In this document: in pieces, positions 32,815 to 34,208 of the stretch | Layout of the letters: every line of letters starts with the position of its first letter | How positions within the stretch are numbered: position 1 is the first letter of the stretch | Source of the DNA: a virus | Lineage: Duplodnaviria; Caudoviricetes | DNA: 64,000 nt | IMG/VR virus record: IMGVR_UViG_3300025389_001063 | Direction: 5' to 3' (one strand) | Notes under the pieces: model-generated | The model's database searches: none | What the model saw: only the letters and a program-made list of their open reading frames with translations | What the model was told of the DNA's origin: nothing | Translations under genes and position numbers: made by a program

Positions 32815-33834
32815 CTACTTCAGACATGTAACAATAGCATAGTCTTGCCAACGGTCTTTGAATGACTTCTTCAAGTCCGCTAGTTTAAGTATAGTACGCA
32901 ATGAGAGCTCTCTGAGTTGCTTCTTGTTTGAGTCGACGAATTCTAGTATCTCGTCAACTTCTTCTTGTTCGAAGTTATAGTCGCGTAGCATACCGTCTTC
33001 GACAATCTGTTTGATACGTAGTATCTTATCGCGCTCACTGTCAATAGTGAGATCAACATAATGACTTCTGGATTCAAGAGCATCGAGGTGATCCTTCAGT
33101 TTCTTCGATTTGACATGATCGAATTTGATGTTAGTGATAAAGATAGCACTCGCTTTAAACTCAAAGCGATTTGGAATACCTTCACGTTCAAGCAAGCGAC
33201 TATCGGTATTCCAACTAATGTAACGACGCTTGCTGGAGTCTAGAGCAGCCTTGAGAATGTTTAGTGATAAGTCATCTAAGAGTACGCTATCGCAGTCGTC
33301 GAACACGATAACATTACCTGCTTCACTGTACTCGTATAGTTTAGCGTACAAGCCCAAAGCACTCATCGCACCTTTAACAATCTCGTACTTAGGCTTCTTG
33401 TTACCGATGGTGTTGAATAGGTCTGATTTAGCCAATTGGGCTTCGACACCAAAGGACTTACCGACGCCCGGTGGTCCACTAACGATAACAGCCCGTACAT
33501 TACCTTCTTTGGCAGCCTGTGTGATATCGGATAAGATTTTAAACCTTCTGCGGAGTCGTTCCTTAATCTCACTGTCAGTCTCCGTTGCTATATGCTTCTC
33601 TATATGATCGCTAATGTTGCCGTTTGATATCGAGTACGTACCGGTTGCTTGGGATACGCGGATGCGAATGTTGCGATCAGGGAAGCCGCGAACAGCACGA
33701 GCATCAACCGTGACATAATAGCCCTTGTCATCTTCTTTAGTCTCCTCTACGAGTGGAAACACCATACCAGCGACACTCTGAGGCTCACCTTTGATATTAT
33801 ATGTGCCCTCAGAGAACTTAATGAGAATGGACAT
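32815..33834 (-). CDS. AAA-family P-loop ATPase
   Basis: GPPGVGKS, VFDDCD, FITN, SR motifs; start ATG 33834. Confidence 0.88.
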   Translation of the reverse strand: MSILIKFSEGTYNIKGEPQSVAGMVFPLVEETKEDDKGYYVTVDARAVRGFPDRNIRIRVSQATGTYSISNGNISDHIEKHIATETDSEIKERLRRRFKILSDITQAAKEGNVRAVIVSGPPGVGKSFGVEAQLAKSDLFNTIGNKKPKYEIVKGAMSALGLYAKLYEYSEAGNVIVFDDCDSVLLDDLSLNILKAALDSSKRRYISWNTDSRLLEREGIPNRFEFKASAIFITNIKFDHVKSKKLKDHLDALESRSHYVDLTIDSERDKILRIKQIVEDGMLRDYNFEQEEVDEILEFVDSNKKQLRELSLRTILKLADLKKSFKDRWQDYAIVTCLK

Positions 33835-33937
33835 TCGTCTTATCCTTCTTACGGTTGTATACTTTTTTGGATTTAACAATACGCTTGCGAAAGAGCGGGT
33901 TGCTCAACGCAGCAGCATAAGGGTTATACTTACTCAT
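33818..33937 (-). CDS. 39 aa ArfA-like basic peptide (not in track)
   Basis: MSKYNPYAAALSNPLFRKRIVKSKKVYNRKKDK...; own promoter, AAGGAG SD. Confidence 0.6.
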   Translation of the reverse strand: MSKYNPYAAALSNPLFRKRIVKSKKVYNRKKDKTNVHSH

Positions 33938-33974
33938 CGCTCTCTCCTTATGCTGCTACTATAGCACCTATACT

Positions 33975-34208
33975 CTATGCGTCAACCCCCATGTGAAGTC
34001 TATCGCGAACTTCTTGTTCAGCCGCCCAATCCTCGAGCAATTTGGTAGCAGACTTAACCTGAGCAGCAACAGTAGGATGAGTCTCGATCAATCCCTTAAG
34101 GAATGACTCATAGAAGCCCGCTTGATAGTCAAACCCTGTGTGGGTAAGTTGGCTAGAACGACGGTTAACAGCGTCTTGAAAGCGCTCAAAAACGGATACT
34201 TCTGACAT
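33975..34208 (-). CDS. Hypothetical protein
   Basis: Promoter and AAGGAG SD. Confidence 0.7.
   Translation of the reverse strand: MSEVSVFERFQDAVNRRSSQLTHTGFDYQAGFYESFLKGLIETHPTVAAQVKSATKLLEDWAAEQEVRDRLHMGVDA

Follow-up and report, generated by a model that had tools for sequence, protein, structure and literature searches.

ArfA is a bacterial factor that frees ribosomes stuck on broken messages, and the bacterial arfA message is itself self-truncating and non-stop. In a 64,000-nucleotide stretch of DNA from a virus of the Caudoviricetes (IMG/VR record IMGVR_UViG_3300025389_001063; the whole stretch is referred to here as the window), we analysed a minus-strand open reading frame (ORF) of 39 codons, 33937..33818, whose product, MSKYNPYAAALSNPLFRKRIVKSKKVYNRKKDKTNVHSH, resembles this factor. 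We consider it probable, at roughly 0.6, that the ORF is an early gene of the phage and encodes a divergent, minimal ArfA-superfamily protein, which would provide release-factor-dependent rescue of stalled ribosomes without control by transfer-messenger RNA (tmRNA).

E. coli ArfA (YhdL; PF03889; structures 5MDV, 5MGP, 5U4I, 5H5U and 7OJ0) is, like the window peptide, tiny and basic, and the two have the same order of motifs, N-x-x-x-A-x-L-x-x-P-L-F-R-x-R-[VI], K-x-K-K and Y-x-R-K, followed by a basic tail that in the window peptide is long enough for a minimal active truncation. The window peptide differs from ArfA in being phage-encoded, in having an early promoter and coupling to an ATPase gene, and in ending at its own stop codon with no in-frame RNase III hairpin or terminator, so that gating by trans-translation would not apply. 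ArfA genes are already known from phages, where two papers have described canonical forms by annotation alone: g10 of Citromicrobium phage RXM (PMC8953757) and gp30 of pelagiphage HTVC027P, which is transcribed early and late, and at a high level during infection (PMC12753301). These two and the IMG/VR viral peptides L006 and L007 are, as is the window peptide, small and phage-borne, lie in early or auxiliary gene regions and have the N-terminal half NP-x-A-x-x-L-x-x-P-x-F-R-x-R-[IV]-V. In contrast to the window peptide, L006, L007 and HTVC027P gp30 pass the Pfam ArfA model, and L006, L007 and RXM g10 keep a GKG/GRG-S-Y loop. Members of phrog_20887/DUF7230 (phiN3 gp277, phiM12, OLIVR5/6, ORM_20, Atu_ph07 and T4-like Acinetobacter phages) share with the window peptide the GKG-less ...V-K-S-K-K-x-Y-x-R-K-K, but are listed as being of unknown function and have a more diverged RF2-contact patch (F to Y/L, L24 to K/R/H, A18 to K/R). 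BrfA of Bacillus and ArfT of Francisella resemble the window peptide in the mode proposed here, in which a vacant mRNA channel is sensed by a small peptide that brings in a class-I release factor; however, no sequence similarity to the window peptide was detected for either, and they are functional analogues only.

The gene and the two halves of its product are located as follows:
33818..33937, minus strand: 39-codon ArfA-like gene (ATG at 33937, TAA at 33820-33818), supported by relatives, family matches and selection
33875..33925, minus strand: codons 5-21 (N5-V21), aligning to the A-site/RF2-contact segment of ArfA, E. coli N14-E30
33821..33874, minus strand: codons 22-39 (K22-H39), the basic tail, aligning to the mRNA-tunnel segment of ArfA, E. 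coli 31-51 minus G35-K36-G37

Pfam ArfA (PF03889) was the only family match of the window peptide in Pfam (18.7 bits, E 0.0012, protein residues 7-31 against model positions 14-41 of 44). All 21 members of the clade to which the window peptide belongs match the same model (best E 1.2e-4), and none of them reaches its cutoff; NCBIfam gave no match to the peptide. The six best sequence matches in the PDB were all E. coli ArfA (E 0.13), with further weak matches to the lysine-rich ribosomal proteins eL34 and eS6, and BLASTP against ArfA of E. coli K-12 yielded 12 identities in 23 positions over E. coli K12-K34 (E 1e-6). Profiles were then compared by hhalign with 30 chromosomal ArfAs above the Pfam cutoff, taken from 401 sampled genomes of their phylum. 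The window clade (21 sequences) aligned to these with a probability of 91.3% (E 9.5e-7, 31 columns) and a set of 72 GKG-less relatives with 95.7% (E 1e-8, 41 columns), while the reversed profiles reached 0.1% (E 0.41, 1 column) and 1.6% (E 0.032, 21 columns), respectively. As the reversed profiles have an identical composition and score only 0.1-1.6%, composition does not explain the ArfA match. An earlier note, made from the DNA sequence, had proposed the ArfA likeness, and the profile comparison that had been set beforehand as the test able to refute it returned the hhalign probabilities of 91-96%. Taken together, the sequence comparisons show that the likeness is homology and not chance.

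The same comparisons place the window peptide among several families. It matches phrog_20887, for which PHROG has no curated cutoff, with E 3.2e-9 and 37.6 bits (residues 1-31 against profile positions 1-31 of 46). L006 and L007, whose N-terminal half is as in the window but is followed by KGKGSY, score 42.9 and 49.4 bits with Pfam ArfA, above its cutoff, and also match phrog_20887; another sequence, P0028, has both termini like those of the window clade and a GKG loop. DUF7230 (PF23876; gathering cutoff 27 bits) was not matched by the window peptide, and one clade member matched it with E 0.059. An exhaustive profile search returned 595 cluster representatives at E<=0.001, nearly all of 34-100 amino acids; among the nearest 150, 51 match ArfA and 56 match DUF7230 (E<=0.01). 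A language-model atlas returned the same two names, ArfA and DUF7230. The peptide thus sits in a continuum joining ArfA, DUF7230 and phrog_20887. A word-index search with the L007 peptide retrieved three proteins only.

In the residue-level comparison, ArfA positions are numbered as in E. coli and residue roles are taken from PMC5378476. N14, L20, F25 (F/Y), R26, R28, V/I29, K31, K33, K34, Y39, R41 and K42 are common to the bacterial ArfAs, the GKG-less relatives and the window clade, and the A-site core N14...L20...P23-L24-F25-R26-x-R28-[VI]29 is aligned column by column by N5, L11, P14, L15, F16, R17, R19 and I20 of the window peptide. ArfA contacts RF2 at W319, V198 and F217 through L19, L24 and F25, and its P23 packs against A1492/A1493 (PMC5378476); with the substitution A18T, RF2 stays in a compact, inactive form (James et al. 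2016 as cited in PMC5378476). The window clade retains A18, L24 and F25, and P23 is retained in the window peptide and in 9 of the 21 clade members. The hydrophobic RF2 patch L19/L24/F25 aligns to A10/L15/F16, so that two of its three residues are kept. The tunnel segment of ArfA comprises amino acids 31-48, and truncation at N47 still leaves an active protein, whereas truncation after M40 does not (PMC5378476). The tail of the window peptide after V21 (K22-H39, including seven K/R and two H) has 18 residues, compared with 17 in the active E. coli ArfA(1-47). Judged by these alignments, the window peptide keeps the majority of the residues that contact the ribosome and a portion of the patch that contacts RF2.

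By homology to the ArfA structures, the basic half K22-H39 would thread into the mRNA channel left empty when a ribosome has stalled at the 3' end of a truncated message. The N-terminal half N5-V21 (A9, L11, P14, L15, F16, R17 and R19) would occupy the A site, where it would keep a class-I release factor, by analogy with ArfA presumably RF2, in an open, active state. Hydrolysis of the nascent chain would follow and release the ribosome. That the peptide binds ribosomes, recruits a release factor and benefits the phage is a prediction.

Several points weigh against a function as an ArfA-type rescue factor. The Pfam ArfA score of 18.7 bits lies below the gathering cutoff of 25.5 bits, and convergence readily produces similarity among short, lysine-rich peptides. 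The RF2-contact patch has A in place of L19, and E30 is replaced by V. G35-K36-G37 of the KGKGSY motif, the segment whose absence had been stated in the earlier note, are deleted, leaving a clean 3-residue gap in the alignments, and the fold-back N-terminal segment (E. coli residues 1-9) is absent, with just four residues preceding N5. G35, K36, G37 and S38 are invariant in all 30 bacterial ArfAs; from K-G-K-G-S-Y-x-R-K the window peptide keeps only K34, Y39, R41 and K42, S38 being replaced by V. In ArfA the segment that folds back, residues 2-13, contacts h44 and S12, and the N-terminal region has no ordered structure, even when ribosome-bound, before RF2 opens (PMC5378476).

These substitutions and losses bear on the possibility that the peptide is an ArfA-derived ribosome binder with a different outcome, which plugs the vacant mRNA channel without activating RF2, uses another partner or parks ribosomes. 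As variants, such a peptide might compete with tmRNA-SmpB, so that nascent phage chains escape ssrA tagging or tmRNA-dependent host responses are blunted, or its partner might be RF1, or either release factor as for ArfT. The tunnel-binding half is indeed the best conserved (K22, K24, K25, Y27, R29, K30), while the RF2-contact side is altered by the L19 and E30 replacements and by the absence of residues 1-9; the wider GKG-less family has A, D or E for L19 and K, L or R for L24, and an altered partner has a precedent in ArfT, which works with both RF1 and RF2 (review PMC8012679). We nevertheless regard such an outcome as rather unlikely, as the window clade keeps A18, L24, F25 and often P23, residues with RF2 or decoding-centre roles, some bacterial ArfAs above the Pfam cutoff (L058-L062) have equally short N-termini, and a pure blocker would trap ribosomes that the phage needs. 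The weak single-sequence scores (Pfam E 0.0012; PDB E 0.13) and the eL34 and eS6 matches would in turn suit a generic small basic nucleic-acid-binding peptide with no ribosome role, in which the ArfA-like motif is convergent or compositional. This explanation is improbable given the difference between the reversed controls and the true profiles, the positional match over 31-41 columns that includes the non-basic N, A, L, P, L, F and Y, and the continuous intermediates up to sequences above the Pfam ArfA cutoff.

The immediate surroundings of the ORF contain the following features:
33958..33985, minus strand: sigma-70-type early promoter (-35 TTGACG at 33985-33980, 16-nucleotide spacer, extended -10 TGcTATAGT at 33963-33958)
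33944..33949, minus strand: Shine-Dalgarno sequence AAGGAG, 6 nucleotides 5' of the ATG and the same in all eight sequences compared
33818..33850, minus strand: coupling region with the ATPase ribosome-binding site AAGAAGGA at 33850-33843, the ATPase ATG at 33834-33832 and the 17-nucleotide overlap 33834..33818
32815..33834, minus strand: downstream AAA-type ATPase of 339 amino acids, assigned by family match to phrog_1250 (unknown function) and co-transcribed with the ArfA-like gene

The earlier note had described a hidden ORF of 39 amino acids with a promoter, AAGGAG and an overlap with the ATPase start; all of these were found, and the peptide fragment quoted there is exact. A word-index protein search with the 45-amino-acid stop-to-stop frame as query retrieved 20 relatives of 36-39 amino acids and 72-90% identity that gene calling had already recorded in other assemblies; the region had no blastn match among cultured phages, and a pattern scan of genome contigs found two loci only. 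Conservation and selection were measured on the DNA of seven metagenomic loci, with the window as reference. Across the seven loci the -35 (GGTTGAC), the extended -10, and the leader with the Shine-Dalgarno sequence (GGTGCTATAGTAGCAGCATAAGGAG) are conserved, the -10 being slightly altered in two of the seven, and the promoter spacer is free to vary. All seven loci show the ORF overlapping the ATPase start, with the pattern AATGTCC.TTCTCA.TAA. Over codons 1-31, the ratio of nonsynonymous to synonymous changes per site (pN/pS) is about 0.1 against the window and 0.0-0.26 among the relatives, with synonymous sites near saturation. Because of the 20 called relatives, the conserved promoter, Shine-Dalgarno sequence and overlap, and the low pN/pS, the ORF is more than a chance reading frame: it is a genuine gene with codons 1-31 under purifying selection.

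Codons 30-32 (K30-K31-D32, AAG AAG GAT; AAGAAGGA) double as the ribosome-binding site of the ATPase gene. The main role of the ORF could hence be that of an upstream reading frame passing ribosomes on to the ATPase start by coupling, with the peptide being incidental, and the conservation in 7/7 relatives of both the 17-nucleotide overlap and this ribosome-binding site would be expected from such a role. It is, however, very improbable as the main explanation: the amino acids are strongly constrained over codons 1-31, far from the overlap, and many phages and bacteria have homologs that lie among unrelated neighbours with no ATPase.

About 25 near-identical promoter sites, that of the ArfA-like gene among them, lie on the minus strand of the 30-40 kb block, in which promoter-like sites on both strands number 44 as against 18.5 expected; the block is an early region with one promoter per gene. 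The -35 box sits in the final codons (G-V-D-A-stop) of an upstream ORF of 77 amino acids (33975-34208, minus strand), an arrangement that fits the cassette pattern of the array. The whole 95-kb viral record, estimated by CheckV to be 27% complete, contains one copy of the ArfA-like gene and four tRNAs, and no tmRNA was found in it. Homologs of the phrog_1250 ATPase occur in 1,294 phage records, including PA5oct-like Pseudomonas jumbo phages (49% identity), and also in many T4-like phages, where they are often labelled 'thioredoxin', probably wrongly.

The message of the window gene was compared with those of bacterial arfA genes and phage cousins for the self-truncating design. In six bacterial arfA controls, hairpins of -23 to -41 kcal/mol were found within the ORF or across its end. 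In-frame fold strength was expressed as z score against 40 shuffles, together with the number of shuffles folding at least as strongly. Among the phage cousins, phiN3 gp277 (z -4.6, 0/40), Atu_ph07 (z -4.3, 0/40) and RXM g10 (z -2.3, 1/40) have such a fold; the window peptide differs from the first two by the terminator-like in-frame hairpin that they keep, and from RXM g10 by lacking hairpin and GKG loop and by being shorter. On alphaproteobacterial chromosomes, L015 (z -3.4, 0/40) and L017 (z -3.8, 1/40) gave strong folds and L019 a weak one (z -0.9, 8/40). No significant in-frame hairpin was found in the window or the clade members L063, L064 and L068 (z +0.9 to -1.0, 6-34/40), nor in the phage cousin OLIVR6 (z +0.8, 32/40), and a scan of the window identified no terminator-like site inside the ORF. 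The TAA at codon 40 of the window ORF stands about where the messages of the cousins would be cut, at approximately the length of mature ArfA. The window clade has lost or lacks the self-truncating design, in line with the description of the peptide as 'naturally short, constitutive' in the earlier note, while bacterial ArfAs and several phage cousins have the hairpin. As cousins of the GKG-less family carry the arfA-type in-frame hairpin, the family is tied to rescue biology controlled by trans-translation.

The terminator-like in-frame hairpins of the phage cousins are located in L003:2501-2641 (phiN3 gp277), L004:2492-2647 (Atu_ph07) and L009:2501-2683 (RXM g10). Several full-length ORFs, from phages as well as bacteria, end in ...AA (FLKAA, SKAA, LLAA, LMAA, RQAA) and resemble ssrA-type degrons in this respect; such ends would destabilise any read-through product.

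The bacterial arfA messages and those of several phage cousins would be non-stop, so that their products accumulate only when tmRNA is overwhelmed. From its own stop codon, the host-type early promoter and the coupling to the next gene, we infer that the window gene would instead be made unconditionally from the start of infection. The phage may in this way gain additional rescue capacity at times when mRNA cleavage by nucleases, its own or those of the host, strands many ribosomes. That the benefit lies in countering mRNA- or tRNA-cleaving defences is speculative; a review of the work on the DRT2 defence reports that host ArfA rises in phage-infected cells expressing it (PMC13434031).

A further element overlaps the promoter and the start of the gene:
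33909..33959, minus strand: inverted repeat of 14 bp, pairing GTAGCAGCATAAGG (end of the -10, leader and half of the Shine-Dalgarno sequence) with CCTTATGCTGCTGC in codons 6-10

This repeat folds strongly if fully transcribed (z about -5), and in eight clade members the synonymous sites of GCTGCTGC do not vary. Its 5' arm, however, overlaps the -10 and the transcription-start region, and the leader AGCAGCAT is common to other promoters of the array. With a start 5-7 nucleotides after the -10, the fold is no better than in shuffles (z -0.1 to -1.4), and RNAalifold predicted no structure for a mixed set. The idea of a regulatory hairpin conserved in the 5' RNA was rejected, since such a hairpin would need the -10/start region to be transcribed, the leader is a shared cassette element and the fold from a realistic start is not significant. 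The inverted repeat could matter only in read-through transcripts.

The short form of the family is found in large cultured phages of Rhizobium, Sinorhizobium, Agrobacterium and Ochrobactrum, including the jumbo phage Atu_ph07, and about 30 T4-like Acinetobacter phages also carry the family, which rules out a distribution restricted to alphaproteobacterial phages. The family is under-annotated because its genes are below most gene-caller cutoffs: the phiN3 copy is annotated as hypothetical, and those of ORM_20, OLIVR6 and Atu_ph07 are missing from the GenBank records. The unannotated ORFs lie at L001:2501-2698 (Ochrobactrum phage ORM_20), L002:2498-2644 (Agrobacterium phage OLIVR6) and L004:2492-2647 (Atu_ph07), and those of ORM_20 and OLIVR6 partly overlap annotated genes on the opposite strand. 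In Roseobacter phage CRP-212, a weak ArfA-like tblastn match (L010:2501-2587) falls within the very large gp38 ORF and may be spurious or an embedded basic segment.

According to one review (PMC8012679), ArfA occurs only in some beta- and gammaproteobacteria, and a published survey recorded arfA in 0 of 2,376 alphaproteobacterial genomes (PMC11633108). In our alphaproteobacterial sample, 17 of 301 genomes (about 6%; L015-L031) have a gene for an ArfA-like peptide, in GKG and GKG-less forms. The surroundings of one such copy (L011/L015) look chromosomal: its neighbours are a MoxR-type ATPase and a ParDE-like pair and not phage genes. A consistent functional neighbourhood was rejected as the neighbours vary by lineage, with the ATPase in the window, Sir2 and DUF2201 in L006/L007, a methyltransferase, RelA/SpoT and a CCA-adding enzyme in phiN3, and ArdA in RXM. 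On the marine viral contigs, the canonical ArfA gene is directly followed by a Sir2-family gene (L006:4253-4924, L007:4053-4802) and has upstream of it a gene encoding a DUF2201 metallopeptidase that includes a VWA-like domain (L007:1357-2622).

In comparison with the phage ArfA genes already annotated, the distinctive elements here are a GKG-less, N-terminally minimal form that standard models miss, its placement between ArfA and two families of 'unknown function', and the arrangement with a plain stop, its own promoter and coupling to an ATPase gene. It is possible, though short of probable, that the GKG-less peptides (DUF7230, phrog_20887 and unannotated members) form a distinct, phage-spread class of release-factor-dependent rescue factors, with the window clade as an 'always-on', ungated version; large virulent phages would then have their own rescue capacity, including in hosts without canonical arfA, and this could protect them against defences that cut mRNA or tRNA. 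The fold-less ArfA peptide design spans at least 595 sequence clusters, many of them from large virulent phages whose hosts are Rhizobiales, Acinetobacter and uncultured aquatic organisms. If these peptides do rescue ribosomes, two families of 'unknown function' would be linked to a testable mechanism, a natural minimal ArfA of 39 residues would be available for structure-function work, and phages would carry their own translation-quality-control factor in two regulatory forms, tmRNA-gated or always on.

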